This document shows positions 1,570-16,629 of a stretch of 44,580 nucleotides of DNA, in pieces. The translations under genes were made by a program, and so were the position numbers. Location: the IMG/VR virus record IMGVR_UViG_2534682161_000019; one strand, given 5' to 3'. The notes beneath the pieces were generated by a model. That model saw only the letters and a program-made list of their open reading frames with translations, had not been told where the DNA came from and searched no databases. The DNA is from a virus (taxonomy: Duplodnaviria; Heunggongvirae; Uroviricota; Caudoviricetes). Position 1 is the stretch's first letter, and every line of letters begins with the position of its first letter.

Positions 1570-2589
1570 CTACTTACTGACCACAAGCGGCAAATCCAGT
1601 GTTGGCGTGATTTTGGTTTTACGATCGTAAATCAACACCTGATTTTCTGTTTTGTGTCCACTGAAAATTTGTTTGTCGCGACTGCTGCCTTCGTAATCTG
1701 AAATTCCTTTGGCTTTTATGTCATGGAAGTTGCACCCAAACGGAACACCGGCTTTTTGCTCGGCTGCACGTTTAGCCTGATTCCACCAGTTGTTCAGCGT
1801 TTTAGCTATGACCTTCCCGCCTTTGGTTGTGTTGATCACATACTCGCATGTGCCGGAAGATACATTTCGGGCTAACTGGATCGCCGTACGTAATCGTGGA
1901 GACCATTCCTTGATTTGTTTGGTGCCGGTCTTGTTTTGCTCAATGTAAATCCCTTTGTCCATAATATCCTGCCATTTCAGCTCGAGCACATCACCGAGCC
2001 TTGCCGCACAGAGATAGGATATCTCCATTGCAATACGTAACTGTGGAATTGCTTCCGCATATATCGCAGCATACTGTTCATCGGTGATGTAAACAGTACG
2101 GGCTTTAAGCGTGAATTTTCTGACTCCTTTGCATGGATTATTTTTCACATACCCACGCTCATATCCCCATCCGTATACGCGACTCAGACTTGCCAGTTCA
2201 TGGTTTGCCTGGGTCTTGCTCTCAAGCCCCCGCTTATCCATGAAAATTCTTACCTGCTCAATTTTTACATTATCAGCAAGCATTTTCCCGAATACCGCCA
2301 GTAATGCCCTTTGATGTTGCCGATAATCTTTTTGGGTTCGGGGGGCCAGTTCTGTAAATGCAGGGGAGTCCATAAACATGTGCCATAATTTAGCTACGGT
2401 CATTATGTCGTGGAGTTTTGCCTTTTCCAGTTCATAATTTTGCCAGACTTTAGCCACGCTGGTTTCCCGCACTCTTCCTAGCTTTATCGTCCTTGTGCTT
2501 CCTTTGGGCTTCCATACGTAACTGTAACCATTCGATCTAACGCGCGGTGGCAGTACATTATCTTTTTTGTCTTTTCTTGGTCTTCCCAT
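1570..2589 (-). CDS. int: tyrosine site-specific integrase (lambda Int family)
   Basis: 339 aa; C-terminal ...FHDIKAKGISDYEGS...FSGHKTENQVLIYDRK resembles the lambda Int catalytic region (GHKSDTMASQYRDDR); adjacent to tRNA fragment; overlaps the xis-like ORF. Confidence 0.9.
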   Translation of the reverse strand: MGRPRKDKKDNVLPPRVRSNGYSYVWKPKGSTRTIKLGRVRETSVAKVWQNYELEKAKLHDIMTVAKLWHMFMDSPAFTELAPRTQKDYRQHQRALLAVFGKMLADNVKIEQVRIFMDKRGLESKTQANHELASLSRVYGWGYERGYVKNNPCKGVRKFTLKARTVYITDEQYAAIYAEAIPQLRIAMEISYLCAARLGDVLELKWQDIMDKGIYIEQNKTGTKQIKEWSPRLRTAIQLARNVSSGTCEYVINTTKGGKVIAKTLNNWWNQAKRAAEQKAGVPFGCNFHDIKAKGISDYEGSSRDKQIFSGHKTENQVLIYDRKTKITPTLDLPLVVSK

Positions 2590-2809
2590 TATTCAGTGCC
2601 TCAAAATCGGGTTCAGCAGAAACCAGTTCAGATACTTTTGACATTGCTGTTAGTCCACGTGGAATATCACAGCGTAGAACTATCGGCTCGTTTTTAGGCC
2701 CGATTAAAAATGGGATGCCGTGCAGTCTTAACTGGTGTTGCTGTCTTGTGTATCGCTTGTATTTCGTGATCTCTTGAATCTCTGCTGGCGATAGAGTTAA
2801 TTCATACAT
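2558..2809 (-). CDS. xis: putative excisionase / small DNA-binding protein
   Basis: 83-aa basic ORF immediately upstream of and overlapping the int start, the canonical xis position; sequence itself not confidently recognised. Confidence 0.5.
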   Translation of the reverse strand: MYELTLSPAEIQEITKYKRYTRQQHQLRLHGIPFLIGPKNEPIVLRCDIPRGLTAMSKVSELVSAEPDFEALNNGKTKKRQKR

Positions 2810-2875
2810 GTGGTCACATGCCTTACAGCATGACCGCCGCCAATATAATTCGGAGGCGGCGATCAGGGTTGAACA

Positions 2876-5359
2876 TTAAAAATCAGCCTGACTCGGGATC
2901 AGTTTTTGTATTGTAGCTGTAACGTATTTTGCCTGGTGACGGGCGTCATCCAGTGCATTGTGGTGCACGCCTTCGAATGGAATAACGGTTCTGGCATCAA
3001 AGTCGATTGTTTTTCCCAGCTCAACGATTGTGCGTACATCGCGATCGTTGTGGTAGCGCCACGGGCAGGGGATGTCCAGACGTTCGTATGAGGTGCGCAA
3101 AATTGCGTTATCGAAAGTTGCACCATTACCCCATACCTGAACGAATTTTTCATCTGAGTATTCGTTGATGAACTCCCGAAACCGCGAAAGGGCATCCTTC
3201 AGTTTTACCTGGTCTGTTAAAATGGCAGCTCTGGCTTCACTGGACTGCTTCAGCCACCATTCGATGGTTCCACCGTCAGGAACAGCCCCTGTATTCATTG
3301 CGTCAGTCAGACTGATAACGATATAAAATACTGGCCCGATTTCCCCTGTTTGTGGGTCGAAGAAAACCGCACCAATAACCACGATGGGCGCATTGGTGTT
3401 GGTTCCCATTGTTTCAAGGTCGATCATCAGGTGGTACCACACTCTGCTGGTGGATGTGATAACGTGATGACCGTTCACCGCAATTAAGGGATCTGCCGTC
3501 TCGCCAGTTTCATTATCGCTGGCGTGGTCCTGAGCGCTGCCAGCATTCTCCTTGTGTGGATGTTCAGCGCCTTCCATTTCCTCCGGATCATTTTCCTGAA
3601 CTTCAACCTGATTCTCTTCATCGAATGTTTCCTGGTATGTTGCGTCGCCCATCACCGCACCACAATCAGGGCAGTTGCCGCCGCCGGTCTGACCGCAGGC
3701 GGTGCAGACTTTTTCCGCTTCCTGTTGCGCTACTGGCTCAGGTTGTTTCGTTTCTGGCTCGTTTTGTAACGCATTTGGGCTGTTTTGTTCCGCGTTCTGG
3801 TCGTTCTGTTCCGTTTCTTGCTGGTTCTGATTCACAGAATCGCGGGTTTCAATCCCCTTCACCCATTTCGGATCATTCGGGTCGCTAATCCCTGCAACAA
3901 ATTCACTACGTGATACAGCAAGCAACTTATCGGCGTCAGGCTGGCTGATATTGGCTGCCTGCATAATTTTGTTTACTTCGTCAGCGGTAACTTTTACCGG
4001 CTCCGGTTGTGCGATCGTGTCAGATGCACCAGTATTTTGTTGTGAACCTGAGTATGTACCGTTTTTGCGGGCAAAATATTCTTCTTTCGTGATTTCAGTA
4101 GCCCCTGCAGCCAGCGCCTTATTCAGACCAGAAAGTTTGTTTGCACGACCGTATTTTTCGCCATCCTTGTCGGTGAAGAGGAAGTAGAACGGCCCCTCAC
4201 GCTCTACAGATGATTCGACTTCCACTTTGCATTCGGTTTTTTCGTTGTCGTGAATTGCCGTTTCCACTGCGTCAGTTTCTGGTACTGGCGACGAGAGAGT
4301 ATTAGCTGTGCCCTGATTTGTTCCTTCGTCATCTTCAAACACGCCCTTTGTAGTCAGGTATTCAGTGATGTATTTGTTCAGTGCCACGGGATCTTTGTGA
4401 ATGTCGATCGGGCGTTCACGGACAAGGCCAAAAATAGTCTGGCGGCTGTAGCGAAGCGCATCAGGTTGTTTGCGCATTGATGCGGAGATGCGCTTCCAGT
4501 CTTCGCGATCTCTGGCGATAACTTCATTTTTAGCCCAGCGAAGGATGCTGCCGTCAATGTTTCCGGCATCCGCATCACCAGGCCAGAGATAGTAGGCCAG
4601 CTCCCTGTCCAGGGTTTTCCATGTCTGCTTGTATTCGCGATGAATGGCGGCAGTTACAGGAGGGATTTTTTCTGCTGGGTTTTCAGTGTGCTGTCGGTTG
4701 GCTTTGGCGCGGGCAAGATCAACAACAGACGTGTATTTTCCAGTCTCTTTGCGCTCTGCGTCCTGCCGTTTTTTCCAGTTACGTAATTCAACCTGAATTT
4801 CGGGCCATTTGGTACCCGGCTTACATTTGTGTTTAACCCATCCGATAGCGAACAGTTTGCGTTCCGGATACATAGCGTTAATTTCAGGCGTTTTCATCAG
4901 TGCTTCAACGATATGCCCGTCAAAGGTAGCCACGTCTTCTTGCAGTAATTCCTGCGCGTCAATCGCCATATCAACGGTGATGTTTTCACATGTACCGAAC
5001 TTAACCAGGACCGCGTTCTGTACTTCAAGGGACAGCTTGTCAAAATTGACGTTAATAGGATCGGATTCTGGTTCGACCGGAATAAAGGAAGCGGATTCCT
5101 CATCCCAGTGGTTTTCCTGCATATATTCGGTATCCCAGGAGTCGATAGCAGGGCGGGGCATGCCGGGTTTATCTTCGCAGACAAGAAATTTATAAGCGCA
5201 GTCCTGAGCAGCAGGATATTGCTCCAGGAATTGCCAGGTAAATTTGGCACGGGCGCGGCGTTCATCACCGGCTTCAATGGCAGTGGCTACAGCAACTGCG
5301 CCCTCTTCTTTTATTGCCTGTTCGTCCGGAATGGCGGCGCAAATAAAGACTTTACTCAT
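2876..5359 (-). CDS. large early-region protein with C-terminal DnaQ-like (DEDDh) 3-prime-5-prime exonuclease domain (type often annotated exodeoxyribonuclease VIII-like in E. coli prophages)
   Basis: 827 aa; C-terminus carries Exo I (MIDLETMGT), Exo II (WGNGATFDNAIL) and Exo III (HHNALDDARH) motifs; Cys4 ribbon CTACGQTGGGNCPDCG; low-complexity Q/N/E-rich linker. Confidence 0.7.
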   Translation of the reverse strand: MSKVFICAAIPDEQAIKEEGAVAVATAIEAGDERRARAKFTWQFLEQYPAAQDCAYKFLVCEDKPGMPRPAIDSWDTEYMQENHWDEESASFIPVEPESDPINVNFDKLSLEVQNAVLVKFGTCENITVDMAIDAQELLQEDVATFDGHIVEALMKTPEINAMYPERKLFAIGWVKHKCKPGTKWPEIQVELRNWKKRQDAERKETGKYTSVVDLARAKANRQHTENPAEKIPPVTAAIHREYKQTWKTLDRELAYYLWPGDADAGNIDGSILRWAKNEVIARDREDWKRISASMRKQPDALRYSRQTIFGLVRERPIDIHKDPVALNKYITEYLTTKGVFEDDEGTNQGTANTLSSPVPETDAVETAIHDNEKTECKVEVESSVEREGPFYFLFTDKDGEKYGRANKLSGLNKALAAGATEITKEEYFARKNGTYSGSQQNTGASDTIAQPEPVKVTADEVNKIMQAANISQPDADKLLAVSRSEFVAGISDPNDPKWVKGIETRDSVNQNQQETEQNDQNAEQNSPNALQNEPETKQPEPVAQQEAEKVCTACGQTGGGNCPDCGAVMGDATYQETFDEENQVEVQENDPEEMEGAEHPHKENAGSAQDHASDNETGETADPLIAVNGHHVITSTSRVWYHLMIDLETMGTNTNAPIVVIGAVFFDPQTGEIGPVFYIVISLTDAMNTGAVPDGGTIEWWLKQSSEARAAILTDQVKLKDALSRFREFINEYSDEKFVQVWGNGATFDNAILRTSYERLDIPCPWRYHNDRDVRTIVELGKTIDFDARTVIPFEGVHHNALDDARHQAKYVTATIQKLIPSQADF

Positions 5360-5829: not shown

Positions 5830-6406
5830 TATCGCGTCCTCAACAATGAATTTTGTGATGCGGTGCCTGGTGCCTCCAGGTGACGTTAACCAGTTAACAA
5901 TTAACGCCGGATACAGAGAATCCACCCATAACACTGTTTTTGGTTTTAACTGTTCCGCGTGCGCTGAGCCGCATTCACCGCATCACAAAATTCACTTTTA
6001 AAAAAGGGCGGCAGAGCAGTCACGGAGTAAAACTGATACCGCCAAATGTCACCAGAATATTGATAACAGAGGGCGTTGTAGCGGGGTTGTCACTTAAGCG
6101 TATGGTCAACCTGACAACCCGGTGTCCTCAACGGGGAAAGGCGTCCCTCCCACCCCCGCCATACTTACCGCCGCGCCATTTCGCGGGTCGCCACAACCGG
6201 AAGCGCACGGTCGAATTAAATTTAACGACACCGTGCAGTGAGACGAACTTCGCCGTGCGCTTTCGTGTTGTGTGCCTGCTTTTAACCACGTCAGGCGAGG
6301 TGGTTTCCGTCATTCCCCAACGACAGGAAATCTGTATAATCTGGGTATCCCCAACGATCCAAGGAAATCATATGACAGAGCAAAGAGCACAAGCAGGTGA
6401 TGGTGT

Positions 6407-7317: not shown

Positions 7318-7554
7318 TCACTCACCTGAATTTCTTTCCAGCCAGCGACGCGCGCCAGCTTCGGTTTTAAACGTTTTGCTTCTGGTATACGTCATCGCGG
7401 TGAACGTGCCGTCCTGGTTGGGAAACACGCCGTACACCAGAGATTCGTTGTTGCCAAGATCGATAGTATCCATGCTGACCTCATTTCCCCTTAACGCCGG
7501 GGTAGCGGAACAAAAACCTGCTGCATAGTTATTAAAGTTGAACCCTGCCGTCAT
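7318..7554 (-). CDS. hypothetical protein, first gene of the leftward early operon
   Basis: 78-aa ORF; an alternative start at 7473 (MDTIDLG...) has a GAGG RBS; not Arg-rich, so not an N-like antiterminator. Confidence 0.4.
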   Translation of the reverse strand: MTAGFNFNNYAAGFCSATPALRGNEVSMDTIDLGNNESLVYGVFPNQDGTFTAMTYTRSKTFKTEAGARRWLERNSGE

Positions 7555-7649
7555 GTTCTTACGCCTCGGGCTGGCTACTTAACCCCTGACCACTGCCGGG
7601 TAACTCTAGGTATTGCCCTGCGTTCTGTGGGGCGGGGTGGGTTGGCATG

Positions 7650-7700
7650 TATATAATGTACTTTATGTTCAGTGTTGTAAAGTACTTTGAGTACATTTTA
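7650..7700. promoter_or_regulatory. leftward early promoter/operator region (OL-like) with ATGTACT operator motifs
   Basis: ATGTACT at 7656-7662 (+) and 7690-7696 (-); 13-mer ATGTACTCAAAGT on the minus strand (7684-7696) is identical to one at 8240-8252. Confidence 0.45.
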
Positions 7701-11998: not shown

Positions 11999-12689
11999 GT
12001 GACTGAATTAACCAAAGAGCAATTAATCGAAGAAGCCAAATTAAAAATAGCGATTGCGAAATGCCACCCCAATTCAGGGATGGCACGGGTAGAGGGCGAG
12101 TTATTCAAAATTGCACTGGCATCGCTGGTAGCAGAACCGCTGGTGCCCGTCATGTATAAAGGAATGAAACTGTTAACAAAAGAGGGGCTTGAGCTTATTC
12201 GTGACGGTATTGCGGAGGCTACGGGACTGGAAGCAATGTGTATGGCTGATGCTTTGCTGTCTGGGGGGGGGGGCAGTGCCGTCAGTGCCGAAAGAAATGT
12301 ATTGGCAGGATGCACCAGTTGAAAGTAGCAGCAAAGCAGCTGCATACGCTACAGGCTGGAAAGCCTGCCGCGAAGCCATGCTTCAGTCCGGAAACTTTCG
12401 GGATAATAAGAATTCGTCAACCAACAATTTTCGGGAAATCCCGGAAACGTCAACCAGCTCTCAGGGAACTCCGGCTGGCTGGATAAGCTGTAGTGATGCA
12501 GTTCCTGCTGAATATTGCGATGTGATTCTGCGCGATGATCTCGGGAATGTATTCCCCGGTTCATGGGATAAGGTTTTTTGCCCCACTCGTGGCGGGAATA
12601 AGATGGCTTTTGTGGACAAAGACGGCGTCGAAGTAGAGAGCTCAACCCACTGGATGCCGCTACCAGAATCGCCGAAGGTGGTGAAGTGA
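11999..12689 (+). CDS. DUF551-like protein interrupted by a frameshift at a G11 homopolymer (possible pseudogene, phase-variable gene or sequencing artefact)
   Basis: ORF 11999-12322 and ORF 12189-12689 are in different frames and join across GGGGGGGGGGG at 12263-12273; removing one G gives a continuous ~229-aa protein ending ...WMPLPESPKVVK. Confidence 0.45.
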
Positions 12690-12762
12690 TGGAAAATGAA
12701 TTCGAAAATGCTATCGCCACGGTGCAGCCAAAATCAATAGTTGAGTAGACTTACTCTGAGGC

Positions 12763-12791
12763 TTGACTACGAGGTTACCATTAGGTGTAAT
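12763..12791 (+). promoter_or_regulatory. sigma70-like promoter upstream of the AT-rich island
   Basis: TTGACT (12763-12768), 17-nt spacer, TGTAAT (12786-12791). Confidence 0.4.
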
Positions 12792-12863
12792 TTAGAGTAA
12801 GTTGGTAGCCTCAGTTGTCGAAGAGGCATAATGGTGATTGTTAGTTGATGCAATAATTAAGGA

Positions 12864-13355
12864 ATGTTAATGCCTACTAATGCTGAACAACCAGTATCAA
12901 TTAGTAAACCGAAGACCGTTACACTTCGTGCTTTTGAAATAAAAAACACTGCACTTTCGAAAAGTTCTAGCGAAGCTAAGGCCGATTTGATAGCAAGGCT
13001 TAGTCAAGTAAAACAGGCAAAAGATAGATGCATGTTGTTAAATCCAGAAGATCCTAAGCAGGAAAGAGATGTTCTTTCGTATTTTAAAGAATCTCCTGTT
13101 ACTGATTCAGTATTTTGCACTATGTTAAGGATTACATCTGACAAAGAAATCCAACACATAACAGATTCTCTTTTTGAGAAAGAGGTCTTTTCTCTGGATG
13201 ATATAGAAACATCTCATTTAGATGTGTCAGCAATATGTAAAGGCCATTACTATTTTTGCATGAGTGATGATTTTTTAGTTACAAATCTCCCATTAAATAA
13301 AACGATTGTGCGTTTACAAACGTATCTGAGTTGGTTTACAAATAATGAGCTTTAA
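12864..13355 (+). CDS. hypothetical protein, first gene of the AT-rich island
   Basis: 163-aa ORF; AAGGA RBS favours the second ATG at 12870; no recognised motif; AT-rich codon usage unlike the surrounding prophage. Confidence 0.5.
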   Translation: MLMPTNAEQPVSISKPKTVTLRAFEIKNTALSKSSSEAKADLIARLSQVKQAKDRCMLLNPEDPKQERDVLSYFKESPVTDSVFCTMLRITSDKEIQHITDSLFEKEVFSLDDIETSHLDVSAICKGHYYFCMSDDFLVTNLPLNKTIVRLQTYLSWFTNNEL

Positions 13356-13370
13356 GAATTCACCCCACTA

Positions 13371-13883
13371 GTGTCAGCAAAAGGGAAAACGAAACTTAGT
13401 GATTTAAAAGCCATAATCGTTAAAGATCCAGAACCGTTAGTACCGACTGCTATGTGTGATGAGTCTGGTGTTAGAAGTAAAAAGGGAGAAATTACGGTTA
13501 GCGAAGGTCATAAATCTATCAAGTTAACACAAAAAGTTCTGGATATTATCAGGAGTTCGATGTCAGACTCTGAACAACTTAATGATATGATGCTGAGTCA
13601 AATGATTTCTGCTGAATTGTTAATAAAATTTAAAAAGCCACGCAGAATGACAGATGATGAATATAGTAGAGCTTTAGGGGCTTATTTGAAACCCGTTAGC
13701 GATCTTGATAATGTATCATTTAAGCGAAAAGATAACAAAACAGAAGTGAAAGGCAAGGATTTGCTGTTAACAAAGTCTGTAAGTATTGAAACGACACAGT
13801 CAGGTAAATTAGTTGAGCATCATTTGCTACAAGAGATGAGCAAGTTTTTGCTAGAGTTAAGCAATGAAAAAAATAGCGGTTAG
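13371..13883 (+). CDS. hypothetical protein, second gene of the AT-rich island (same frame as the first, separated by one TAA)
   Basis: 170-aa ORF with a GTG start and no clear RBS; in-frame continuation of 12864-13355 across the stop at 13353-13355. Confidence 0.45.
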   Translation: MSAKGKTKLSDLKAIIVKDPEPLVPTAMCDESGVRSKKGEITVSEGHKSIKLTQKVLDIIRSSMSDSEQLNDMMLSQMISAELLIKFKKPRRMTDDEYSRALGAYLKPVSDLDNVSFKRKDNKTEVKGKDLLLTKSVSIETTQSGKLVEHHLLQEMSKFLLELSNEKNSG

Positions 13884-14325
13884 CGTATTATCAATATTGC
13901 TGCTCACATTGTTGGCTAGTTCAGTCTGGGATGTTCGTCCGGACGGTTTTTTTGCGTCGACAGTTTTTACAATTTCTGGAATAATGTTCTCAATTGGATT
14001 AGGGCTAATTGTGAATTTTAGCACATCCGGTGTAAGGAACCGTGGATACATTCTGCGTATTAGACGTAATGTAATGAGGGTGAGGAATTCATTTCTATTA
14101 TATTTTGGTTTGTCGACTTTTTCTTACATAGCAAATCAATATCTTACTGCTTTTGAGTTTTCTTTAACCTTTGGTGATGGTATCAAAACATGTTTTAGCG
14201 CATCCATATTCTTTTGCTTGCTTATAATTTATTCCTCTATATATTTTGTTGTTAATTTTATAGAGTTGCAAAAACTCAATAATGATATTTTTGATAAAGT
14301 CAATGCGGAAATAACTAACAAATGA
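13864..14325 (+). CDS. hypothetical integral membrane protein (about 4 TM helices), third gene of the AT-rich island
   Basis: 153 aa; hydrophobic segments SVLSILLLTLLASSVW, VFTISGIMFSIGLGLIVNF, FLLYFGLSTFSYIANQYL, FSASIFFCLLIIYSSIYFVVNFI; overlaps the upstream ORF by 20 nt. Confidence 0.55.
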   Translation: MKKIAVSVLSILLLTLLASSVWDVRPDGFFASTVFTISGIMFSIGLGLIVNFSTSGVRNRGYILRIRRNVMRVRNSFLLYFGLSTFSYIANQYLTAFEFSLTFGDGIKTCFSASIFFCLLIIYSSIYFVVNFIELQKLNNDIFDKVNAEITNK

Positions 14326-14523
14326 AATGGCTTTTGTGTGCATGTTAAATAAAGAATACATGGCATCATTTAATGATGTCATGTGTAACGAGCGAAAAGC
14401 CTTTTGAACGGTTTTCATAAGTTATATTGAAAGATAAAATTGCTGCGGGTGCTTGAGGCTATCTGCCTCAGGCATGAACACCAACGGCAGATAGATAAAA
14501 GCCCCACCCGACTATAAATCGAA

Positions 14524-14742
14524 GTGAGGCCCCTATATGCTCGTCACATACAGATTGCCTCTTACGGACCGAAAGGTCAAGGAGAAGCAGGCTATGAAGC
14601 AGCAAAAGGCGATGCTAATCGCCCTGATCGTCATCTGTTTAACCGTCATAGTGACGGCACTGGTAACGAGGAAAGACCTCTGCGAGGTACGAATCCGAAC
14701 CGGCCAGACGGAGGTCGCTGTCTTCACAGCTTACGAACCTGA
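14524..14742 (+). CDS. mok: mok-like overlapping reading frame of the hok toxin locus
   Basis: 72-aa ORF starting upstream of hok and overlapping it in another frame, ending 7 nt before the hok stop. Confidence 0.5.
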   Translation: MRPLYARHIQIASYGPKGQGEAGYEAAKGDANRPDRHLFNRHSDGTGNEERPLRGTNPNRPDGGRCLHSLRT

Positions 14743-14749
14743 GGAGTAA
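14594..14749 (+). CDS. hok: Hok/Gef-family type I toxin (HokD/RelF-like)
   Basis: 51-aa product MKQQKAMLIALIVICLTVIVTALVTRKDLCEVRIRTGQTEVAVFTAYEPEE: single TM helix plus conserved C-terminus; matches HokD as I recall it. Confidence 0.85.
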   Translation: MKQQKAMLIALIVICLTVIVTALVTRKDLCEVRIRTGQTEVAVFTAYEPEE

Positions 14750-14915
14750 GAGACCTGGCGGGGAGAATTCCCTCGCCACCTCTGATGTGTCAGGCTTCCT
14801 CAACGCACCCGCACTTAACCCGCTTCGGTGGGTTTTGTTTTTTCTGTGCATTCTGGTTTACAATTCGCACGCCAGCCTGAACAACTGGCACCTGCTGCGC
14901 CAGCAGAGACAACCG

Positions 14916-15194
14916 ATGGCGCACGATACCAAATTACACAATTCTGATGATTCTGCCGTCTTTGCCAGCAGGCACGGGCTGCGTTCTCACGCATTCAAAT
15001 ATGACTGGTATCAGCACGATCCCTGTACTGAAGAACAGGCCGAATGGCTGATTCATAACTACCGCAGACGTGGGTATGAGTTTAAGAAAGCCCTCAGTCT
15101 CGATTATCGTCACTGGATAATCTACGTCAGGCTCCCTTATTCCGAACGCCCGCCGCGTCCATCCCGCACATTCCAGCAACGGATCTGGAGGTAA
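14916..15194 (+). CDS. hypothetical protein (DUF1364-like/Rem-like position between hok and DUF968 gene)
   Basis: Track gives 14787-15194 with a GTG start and hydrophobic N-terminus; the internal ATG at 14916 yields a 92-aa product; start uncertain. Confidence 0.35.
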   Translation: MAHDTKLHNSDDSAVFASRHGLRSHAFKYDWYQHDPCTEEQAEWLIHNYRRRGYEFKKALSLDYRHWIIYVRLPYSERPPRPSRTFQQRIWR

Positions 15195-15195
15195 C

Positions 15196-16245
15196 GTGCG
15201 GGTATTACTTCGACCTGTTCCGGTGCCGGAACTCGGGCTGGTGGTCCTTAAGCCGGGCCGTGAATCTATGCAGGTATTTCATAATCCCCGGGTACTGGTG
15301 GAGCCGGAACCGAAAAGCATGCGCGGTCTGCCGTCCGGAGCTGTTCCTGCCGTTCGCCAGGCGCTGGCGGAAGATAAATCATTACTGCCATTTTTCAGCG
15401 ATGAGCGGGTGATTCGTGCTGCTGGCGGCGCTGGTGCACTGTCTGACTGGCTGTTGCGTCATGTCAAATCCTGCCAGTGGCCTCATGGTGACTATCATCA
15501 CAGTGAAACCGTCATACATCGTTACGGTACCGGCGCGATGGTGTTGTGCTGGCACTGCGACAACCAGTTGCGTGACCAGACCTCCGAATCACTCGGGCAA
15601 CTTGCTCATCAAAACCTGTCGGCATGGATGATTGACGTCATACGCCACGCAATGAATGGCACACAAGAGCGGGAATTATCGCTGGCTGAATTGTACTGCT
15701 GGGCTGCTGTAAATGATGTAGTGGATGCCATGACCGAAAATATGGCGCGTCGAATCCTGAAGCGTCCGGGTGAAAAAATCCGCTCAATATACCGCGAGAG
15801 CGACATCATACCGGGAGAACCGACAGCCACCAGCATACTGAAGCAGCGCACAAAAAATATTGCGCTACCACCTTACGCCCACCAGCAACAGAACCCACCA
15901 CAGGAAAAGACGGTGGTCAGCATCGCCGTTGATCCGGAGTCTCCTGAATCTTTCATGAAGCGACCTAAACGTCGCCGTTGGGTAAATGAGAAATATACGC
16001 GCTGGGTGAAGACTCAGCCGTGTGCGTGTTGTGGTCAACCAGCCGACGATCCCCATCACCTGATTGGTCATGGTCAGGGCGGAATGGGAACAAAGGCCCA
16101 CGATATTTTTACACTACCGCTGTGCCGGGAGCATCACAACGAACTTCATGCGGATCTGCTGGCGTTCGAAGAAAACCATGGTTCCCAGATTGATTTAATT
16201 TTTCGTTTTCTTGATCACGCCTTTGCAACCGGCGTGCTTGGGTAA
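15196..16245 (+). CDS. DUF968-like protein (YdfU-like) with C-terminal HNH-like Cys/His motif
   Basis: 349 aa; GTG start 5 nt after GGAGG; C-terminal ...CACCGQPADDPHHLIGHG...CREHHNELH. Confidence 0.55.
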   Translation: MRVLLRPVPVPELGLVVLKPGRESMQVFHNPRVLVEPEPKSMRGLPSGAVPAVRQALAEDKSLLPFFSDERVIRAAGGAGALSDWLLRHVKSCQWPHGDYHHSETVIHRYGTGAMVLCWHCDNQLRDQTSESLGQLAHQNLSAWMIDVIRHAMNGTQERELSLAELYCWAAVNDVVDAMTENMARRILKRPGEKIRSIYRESDIIPGEPTATSILKQRTKNIALPPYAHQQQNPPQEKTVVSIAVDPESPESFMKRPKRRRWVNEKYTRWVKTQPCACCGQPADDPHHLIGHGQGGMGTKAHDIFTLPLCREHHNELHADLLAFEENHGSQIDLIFRFLDHAFATGVLG

Positions 16246-16257
16246 AAGAGGTTACTG

Positions 16258-16629
16258 ATGCGTATAGAGTTTGTTTTGCCTTACCCGCCGACGGTGAACA
16301 CCTACTGGCGACGTCATGGCAGCACATATTTTGTATCAAAAGCCGGTGAGCGTTATCGCCGTGATGTGGCGTTCATTGTTCGCCAGCAGCGGTTGAAATT
16401 AAACCTCTCCGGAAGGCTGGCGATAAAGATTATTGCAGAGCCACCGGATAAGCGCCGTCGTGACCTGGACAATATCCTGAAAGCACTGCTGGATGCGCTG
16501 ACACATGCGGGGCTGCTTATAGACGACGACCAGTTTGATGAAATCAATATTGTGCATGGTCTGCCTGTTTGCGGTGGGCGACTGGGTGTGAATATATTCG
16601 TAATAAGAGGATGTAATGATGTTGCGTGA
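16258..16629 (+). CDS. rusA: RusA-family Holliday junction resolvase
   Basis: 123 aa; [12 protein letters not shown]...[27 protein letters not shown] matches RusA (PPS.N.YYR...RRRDLDN...DAL..AG...DD). Confidence 0.8.

Follow-up and report, generated by a model that had tools for sequence, protein, structure and literature searches.

The stretch of DNA analysed here (the "window", 44,580 nt in length) represents a lambdoid prophage of E. coli, with an integrase, DicF, Ea22, DUF551, hok/sok, DUF968, RusA, Q, lysis and tail genes. It belongs to the Qin/Rac-like prophages that bear DicF (the relative has ydfA/ydfB-like genes), and its small RNA genes STnc100 and DicF are located at 273-465 and 6006-6057 (-). 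Between the DUF551 gene and hok, within the nin region, the GC content falls to 0.29-0.38 across about 12750-14550, against about 0.50 on both flanks, which bears out the AT-rich island of the original prediction. Direct reading of this island confirms that two open reading frames (ORFs), 12864-13355 and 13371-13883, lie in the same frame and are split by the TAA at 13353-13355 and a further 15 nt; translation of 12864-13883 yields 340 codons with one internal stop. The TAA is followed by GAA TTC ACC CCA CTA and then by the GTG at 13371, with no change of frame relative to the upstream ORF, and the second ORF ends with the TAG at 13881-13883. The earlier remark that the second ORF has no clear ribosome-binding site also holds, as the 25 nt preceding GTG 13371 (tgagctttaagaattcaccccacta) contain no Shine-Dalgarno-like purine run. 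On the other hand, the start of the first ORF was originally put at 12864, and we find ATG 12870 likelier: the AAGGA motif upstream of it directly abuts 12864, and the sequence MPTNAE, which corresponds to a start at ATG 12870, is the N-terminus both in the NCBI PGAP annotation and in all homologues. Hereafter, the joined frame is referred to as gene A and the gene that follows it as gene B (Table 1).

Table 1. Features of the A-B locus (positions in the window)
Feature	Position	Strand	Remarks
Cassette common to different lambdoid prophage backbones	12644..14809		DUF551 3' end, AT-rich A-B module and hok/sok
Candidate sigma-70 promoter of the A-B operon	12763..12791	+	TTGACT, 17 nt, TGTAAT; weak candidate, read from the sequence
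Gene A, codons 1-161	12870..13352	+	AAGGA 6 nt upstream of ATG 12870; profile positions 6-155
Premature ochre stop TAA	13353..13355	+	in place of TTA (Leu162), T-to-A change at 13354
Gene A, codons 163-337 and natural stop	13356..13883	+	contains GTG 13371, start of the 170-aa ORF
Gene B, 153-aa membrane protein, intact in the window	13864..14325	+	shares 20 nt with the end of A

The cassette is delimited by the positions at which similarity to loci on other prophage backbones begins (12644) and stops (14809). The candidate promoter was missed by a consensus scan, the -10 rule of which demands A at position 2. An internal promoter of gene B, comparable to pLIT of lambda, was considered and rejected, with seven promoter-like sites against 6.1 in shuffled sequence, and a terminator-like hairpin inside B (13924-13944) was likewise dismissed as being at the chance level (2 vs 1.6). 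Within gene A, an in-frame ATG at 13560 (Met231) is preceded at 4 nt by a strong AGGAG and could give rise to a C-terminal peptide of 107 aa; this start is conserved only among close relatives and is probably fortuitous. The hok/sok genes lie directly downstream in the same transferable cassette (Rfam sok match at 14447-14596, Hok ORF at 14537-14749), and hok is annotated as frameshifted in the nearest relative of the window. As for the existing annotations, the 161-aa N-terminal piece of A is recorded elsewhere as a hypothetical protein (P0082) and the 170-aa ORF from GTG 13371 as another (P0083), while in place of B the PGAP pipeline sometimes reports an antisense ORF of about 72-84 aa (7465-7683 in the nearest relative; 14164-14418 (-) in the window).

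The original prediction left it open whether the two ORFs are two genes or one gene of about 340 aa that carries a nonsense mutation, and the comparison with homologues speaks for the latter: the relatives are uninterrupted and have a sense codon at the site. The nearest relative, NZ_AP042570.1 (L001), which alone among 5,426 complete E. coli genomes carries the island, is 99.8% identical to the window over 1751 nt and encodes a single coding sequence of 337 aa; base by base, it differs at 13354 and has TTA (Leu162) where the window has TAA. The same TTA and an uninterrupted ORF are present in eight further (draft) E. coli loci, which were fetched via the neighboring gene. Among 5.8 billion proteins searched, we identified 81 homologues of A, nearly all of them 307-357 aa in length, and when 1.84 billion cluster representatives were searched with a profile, 457 clusters of the A family at 50% identity came up (E<=1e-3); nearly all of the 150 representatives listed from these 457 are full-length single proteins of roughly 300-345 aa. 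In all 61 aligned homologues residue 162 is hydrophobic (L, F, I, Y or V), and it falls within the conserved motif ELxEFTP, of which E163 and T165 are near-invariant and P166 is invariant in the same alignment. Moreover, the two pieces encoded by the window, taken from its identical IMG/VR copy (L039), match one family profile consecutively, at positions 6-155 and 163-322, so the arrangement of the ORFs is not due to chance.

The alternative of two genes would have homologues consistently organised as pairs; in the 81 homologues, the 150 listed cluster representatives, 78 viral loci and 14 other loci, we encountered no gene that is naturally divided in two. Two proteins that start at the equivalent of the split (P0327 and P0362) were examined as candidates for such a version and rejected, as both are located at contig ends, and three loci (L028, L069 and L112) were rejected as they contain frameshifts at other positions. 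No copies were found on plasmids either, where they were also sought. Since the relatives possess a sense codon and the homologues are full-length, the TAA stop must be regarded as the derived state. We therefore propose, on the strength of sequence comparison, that 12870-13883 is very probably a single gene of 337 codons, in which Leu162 (TTA) was converted into an ochre stop by a T-to-A transversion at 13354.

The window differs from the closest complete genome by a single base at this codon, which might raise the suspicion of a sequencing or assembly error in this record. However, the identical TAA recurs across numerous assemblies made independently of each other (NCBI, Logan and IMG/VR), hence it is not a sequencing error, and we regard the probability of such an artefact as practically negligible. 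The exact 161-aa fragment is recorded on 84 contigs, in 133 index blocks, as well as on the IMG/VR contig L039. Eight sampled TAA loci exhibit no differences from the window over 3.6 kb (12700-16300), and the ninth (L034) deviates only around an IS insertion, with full (100%) identity from 12774 on; over 6.46 kb, L014 and L017 are 100% and 99.985% identical, respectively. All sampled TAA loci share one prophage backbone. These data show that the TAA allele arose once and recently, and subsequently spread clonally on that backbone. With regard to its frequency, the allele roughly equals the intact alleles of its 90% cluster in the database (84 contigs versus about 71), and it could be tolerated or even favoured; the zero diversity of the TAA lineage indicates that this frequency results from clonal spread rather than from long-term maintenance. 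Recurrent mutation or reversion was suggested by several 170-aa variants (P0085, P0086, P0088 and P0093) that share polymorphisms with intact 337-aa alleles, and was rejected for the cases checked: the loci L010 and L015, annotated with 170 aa only, carry the intact 337-codon ORF (2007-3020) and are annotation artefacts, in which the 170-aa model was applied to an uninterrupted gene.

Several other differences among the closely related loci deserve mention in their own right. Over the 1751 nt compared, all three differences between the window and the nearest relative are non-synonymous and located in A (13333, 13354 and 13554). One of them gives the relative the substitution W155L, which affects a tryptophan found in at least 90% of the A family, and judging by the alignment its "intact" allele may itself be impaired. 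The locus L034 (AP025751.1) contains an IS3-family element (1574-2904, with rve and HTH_Tnp_1 domains), inserted with a 5-bp duplication at window positions 12774-12778, exactly between TTGACT (12763-12768) and TGTAAT (12786-12791), and this is a second disruption of the A-B module. Decay is also evident in the neighborhood, as a poly-G run in the DUF551 gene carries a frameshift, and methylase and Ea22-like genes are truncated in the nearest relative. In the window, the poly-G tract at 12256-12266 (within 11999-12689) is G11 and splits the 229-aa DUF551 gene into the ORFs 11999-12322 and 12189-12689; in loci that otherwise match the window exactly, its length is G10 (L034), G11, G12 or G13, and the nearest relative has G10 too. 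The G10 and G13 variants are in frame, and a related cassette (L012) has G4. Either the tract is prone to slippage and contingency-like, or the variation stems from sequencing error in a homopolymer.

We then considered what the interrupted gene encodes, which the original prediction, correct as to the interruption itself, had missed together with the partner gene. Neither the window fragments, nor the joined protein, nor 19 homologues yield a Pfam match even at E<=10, and searches of PHROGs, NCBIfam, PADLOC and PDB sequences with A were negative, with lambda RexA itself serving as a positive control for the PHROG search (phrog_12654, 5e-162). A tblastn search of A against 50,697 phage records matched only Escherichia phage PhiR68_2 and Acinetobacter phage TCUAN1. 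The structure of A was modelled (AF2; pLDDT 77.6, pTM 0.73). Its structural neighbors include RdgC, Iml3, Chl4/CENP-N and 3oh8, all of which are listed as neighbors of RexA in the paper that describes the RexA structure (PMC11077077), and the predicted structure of A exhibits the RexA/RdgC-like fold, with a globular domain that is split and with a beta-sheet dimerisation domain. In RexA, the globular domain is composed of residues 1-139 and 248-279, with a hinge at 140-142 and the dimerisation domain at 143-234 (PMC11077077). By analogy, we infer that the 161-aa fragment corresponds only to the first part of the globular domain, and residues 163-337 to the dimerisation-type domain and the C-terminal helix; this placement of residue 162 was judged from the order of secondary structure elements and the analogy with RexA, not from a superposition. 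In an intact module, A would be a cytoplasmic protein of the RexA/RdgC fold, predicted to bind DNA and to sense infection.

Homology to lambda RexA (PF15969, PHROG 12654) or RexB at the level of sequence was considered and rejected, with BLASTP, Pfam, PHROGs, NCBIfam, PADLOC, PDB and hhalign all negative. In particular, the BLASTP comparison of A with lambda RexA gives E=4.1, which is not a match, and hhalign of the A family against 25 RexA homologues assigns a probability of 0.3% with 61 sequences of the family and 0.4% with 194. A is therefore outside the Pfam RexA family, and the predicted structure suggests treating it as a sequence family of its own, new within the RexAB type as defined by structure.

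Gene B encodes a protein predicted to comprise four long helices and a beta-hairpin (AF2 pLDDT 86.5), with three of the four helices passing a strict hydropathy threshold, and it has 93 homologues in the database. Its linkage to A is striking in extent: full-length B follows directly downstream of A in all 75 viral loci with room for it and in 14/14 loci from diverse genomes and phages, and the two genes overlap in 71 of the 75. A accordingly has an obligate, small membrane partner encoded downstream, with about four transmembrane helices, as do the RexAB-type systems. The Mu-like phage contig L022, with GemA and Mu F genes nearby, carries a natural A-B fusion of 452 aa (P0236, at 4001-5359); this single case may be an assembly error of 1 nt, and it would fit a physical interaction of A with B. 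As in the case of A, sequence comparisons with the lambda counterpart were negative: the best BLASTP hit of B to RexB has E 0.06 over 14 residues, none of 41 members of the B family matches the RexB Pfam family (PF15968), and B has no match in PHROGs (RexB being PHROG 14878). A fold match of B to viral proteins was also rejected, as Foldseek against BFVD returned nothing at E<=0.001 and RexB is not among the matches listed. B can be called a RexB-like partner by analogy only, with the likeness limited to the size and the number of helices.

The genomic slot of the pair offers a further point of comparison. In PhiR68_2 and TCUAN1, A and B are located immediately downstream of a cI/LexA-type repressor gene on the same strand, the position that rexA and rexB occupy downstream of cI in lambda. 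A repressor homologue (of the cI/LexA or HTH type) is found upstream on the same strand in 55 of the 70 IMG/VR loci with enough upstream DNA, many of which are redundant, and the search, an iterated jackhmmer, can pick up generic HTH proteins; in 43 of these 55 the repressor gene ends within 600 nt of A. Beyond the repressor there is often a divergent gene for a Cro-like HTH protein. The module of the window itself is not adjacent to a repressor and occupies the nin region. The A-B family ranges over Enterobacterales, Acinetobacter and Bacteroidota, and our survey of the literature on the family, or on PhiR68_2 in that context, returned nothing relevant. From the fold, the partner and the genomic slot taken together, we infer that A and B probably constitute a two-gene exclusion (abortive infection) module analogous to RexAB. 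In this scenario, B would be a four-helix effector of the inner membrane that collapses membrane integrity or potential once activated by A, and the lambdoid prophage of the window, itself in decay, would carry the module in its nin region as an AT-rich accessory (moron) cassette.

Comparison with known systems helps to delineate this proposal. Like lambda RexA/RexB (PF15969/PF15968; PDB 8TWQ), A and B form an operon of a cytoplasmic protein of ~300 aa followed by a four-helix membrane protein of ~150 aa, are located directly downstream of a cI-type repressor on the same strand in most phage contigs of the family, and are carried by temperate phages and prophages. However, they have no detectable sequence or profile similarity to the lambda proteins; A is longer than RexA (337 vs 279 aa) and contains a disordered insert of about 30 residues (190-219), while B differs from RexB in the beta-hairpin between helices 3 and 4 and has no fold match to viral proteins. 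Lambda rexA and rexB are 15 nt apart, whereas A and B overlap by about 20 nt, and the copy in the window departs further from the lambda arrangement in its distance from the repressor and in the stop codon within A. In the RexABpp system of the Pseudomonas putida prophage P1 (PP_5643/PP_5644; Sci Rep 2026), RexApp is detectable against RexA by HHpred at 98% probability (PMC12894663), whereas A is not detectable by hhalign; defence, DNA binding and B-dependent toxicity of RexABpp are supported experimentally (PMC12894663). The Rex-like pairs of actinobacteriophages (Sbash gp30/31, CarolAnn gp44/43, Toast gp42 and Butters gp30/31) also combine a cytoplasmic A-like protein of 337-372 aa with a membrane protein; these pairs confer exclusion of heterotypic phages, and some of them adjoin the immunity repressor (PMC11077077; PMC12894663). 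They differ from A-B in the phylum of the host and, in the case of Butters, in the reversed roles of A and B. RdgC (PDB 2OWL), in contrast, is the product of a chromosomal housekeeping gene, with neither a membrane partner nor a phage or repressor context.

What, then, is the fate of the gene interrupted in the window? Its stop is followed by G, and UAA with a following G is an efficient terminator in E. coli. The only tRNA genes found in the window, which could have included a suppressor, are those of tRNA-Thr(TGT) and tRNA-Gly(TCC), and no Rfam recoding element was detected there. Features of programmed recoding (selenocysteine, pyrrolysine or programmed read-through) are also missing from this locus, in which the codon is UAA, confined to one clonal lineage, and all homologues have a sense codon at the site. 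Owing to the UAA-G context, and with neither a suppressor tRNA in the window nor a recoding signal, inactivation is favoured over read-through on the sequence evidence. It could be argued that full-length protein still arises by read-through or suppression in amounts sufficient for function, as there is only one in-frame stop and the frame downstream is undamaged. However, the latter is expected anyway of a mutation so young, which has had too little time for decay, and the clean frame is uninformative on function. The low level of A that would result is not obviously useless, given that the behaviour of RexAB-type systems depends on the A:B ratio (PMC12894663), and yet we regard such a rescue as extremely improbable.

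A second way to preserve function would be a split gene, in which termination at the TAA and reinitiation at GTG 13371 give 161-aa and 170-aa pieces that reassemble, so that the stop is tolerated or selected. The GTG is in frame and only 15 nt past the stop; in the model, the break falls after the helix 147-157 and before the strand 164-166, by analogy with the RexA hinge at 140-142 it could be near a domain boundary, and the allele is present on as many as 84 contigs. On the other hand, the GTG lacks a Shine-Dalgarno sequence, and proximity is the sole support for re-initiation there, which may nonetheless occur at a low level. Residues 161-170 are confidently structured in the model of A (pLDDT about 90), and residues 162-166 belong to one of the most conserved motifs (ELxEFTP), and being both structured and highly conserved the segment does not resemble a permissive linker. 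Furthermore, no natural two-gene version was found in the homologues and loci listed above, as the short members checked turned out to be contig-edge fragments or frameshifts, and the zero diversity of the TAA lineage points to clonal spread. A functional split gene is therefore very unlikely, and the 170-aa ORF from GTG is probably a by-product of annotation and not a gene.

Instead, we propose that gene A in the window is a young nonsense pseudogene, which the sequence evidence makes most likely non-functional, and we hold this with good confidence. Translation would end after residue 161 and leave only the first part of the globular domain, deprived of the segments from which lambda RexA builds its dimerisation domain and its closing C-terminal helix; no dimeric A protein would be made, and the module would lack its sensor and activator. 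Ribosomes would stop short of the 20-nt A/B overlap, and with the loss of coupling the translation of B (13864-14325), the own Shine-Dalgarno sequence of which is weak (GAG, 7 nt upstream), would probably be lowered as well. The module in the window is thus probably silent, i.e. switched off, as far as can be judged from its sequence. With this respect the locus resembles the ordinary nonsense pseudogenes of cryptic prophages, with a single derived stop, disrupted neighbors and fragments annotated as separate hypothetical proteins; it differs from them only in that the 170-aa annotation has been copied onto genomes with an intact gene (L010 and L015).

One may also consider the stop as selected, with the loss of A disarming a costly or self-toxic sensor of abortive infection while B is kept, perhaps in a role of its own, as has been proposed for lambda RexB. 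The TAA clone is widespread, there are three other independent disruptions of A with an intact B (in L028, L069 and L112), and the E. coli alleles exhibit a ratio of non-synonymous to synonymous changes of 7:2 in A and 0:2 in B. However, A is 2.2 times longer than B, and four disruptions in A versus none in B fall short of significance (about p=0.23); two frameshifts are in a poly-A run and possibly represent assembly errors, and the counts of SNPs are tiny. The decay of adjacent genes of the same prophage, moreover, is what would be expected of neutral loss. We consider adaptive loss to be quite unlikely. As regards the frameshifts themselves, they are located at 3741-3771 in L028, at about 3741 in L112 and at about 3255-3396 in L069, with B intact in each. 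Two of them fall within the poly-A run coding for the KFKKP motif, which is conserved (the change in Orbaceae ESL0727, the second copy of which, L026, is intact, is from A7 to A6), and one is near codon 100 of a PhiR68_2-type allele of E. coli. The more comprehensive proposal, that A and B are a widespread, unrecognised family of the RexAB type and that the TAA clone is a "sensor-null, effector-intact" genotype spread by selection that keeps a RexB-like function, likewise appears doubtful to us when taken as a whole.

It must be noted that the stop itself is an ordinary, recent pseudogenising mutation, the main import of which is for annotation: the "hypothetical proteins" of 161 aa and 170 aa are pieces of one gene. 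The family to which this gene belongs is of broader interest. The A-B pair occupies the classical rexAB position in numerous temperate phages from Enterobacterales, Acinetobacter and Bacteroidota, and if it is indeed of the RexAB type, it would add to these systems a large family unrelated in sequence and absent from Pfam, PHROGs, NCBIfam and PADLOC. The natural occurrence of intact and null alleles in nearly isogenic prophages of E. coli would make a functional comparison of the two straightforward.
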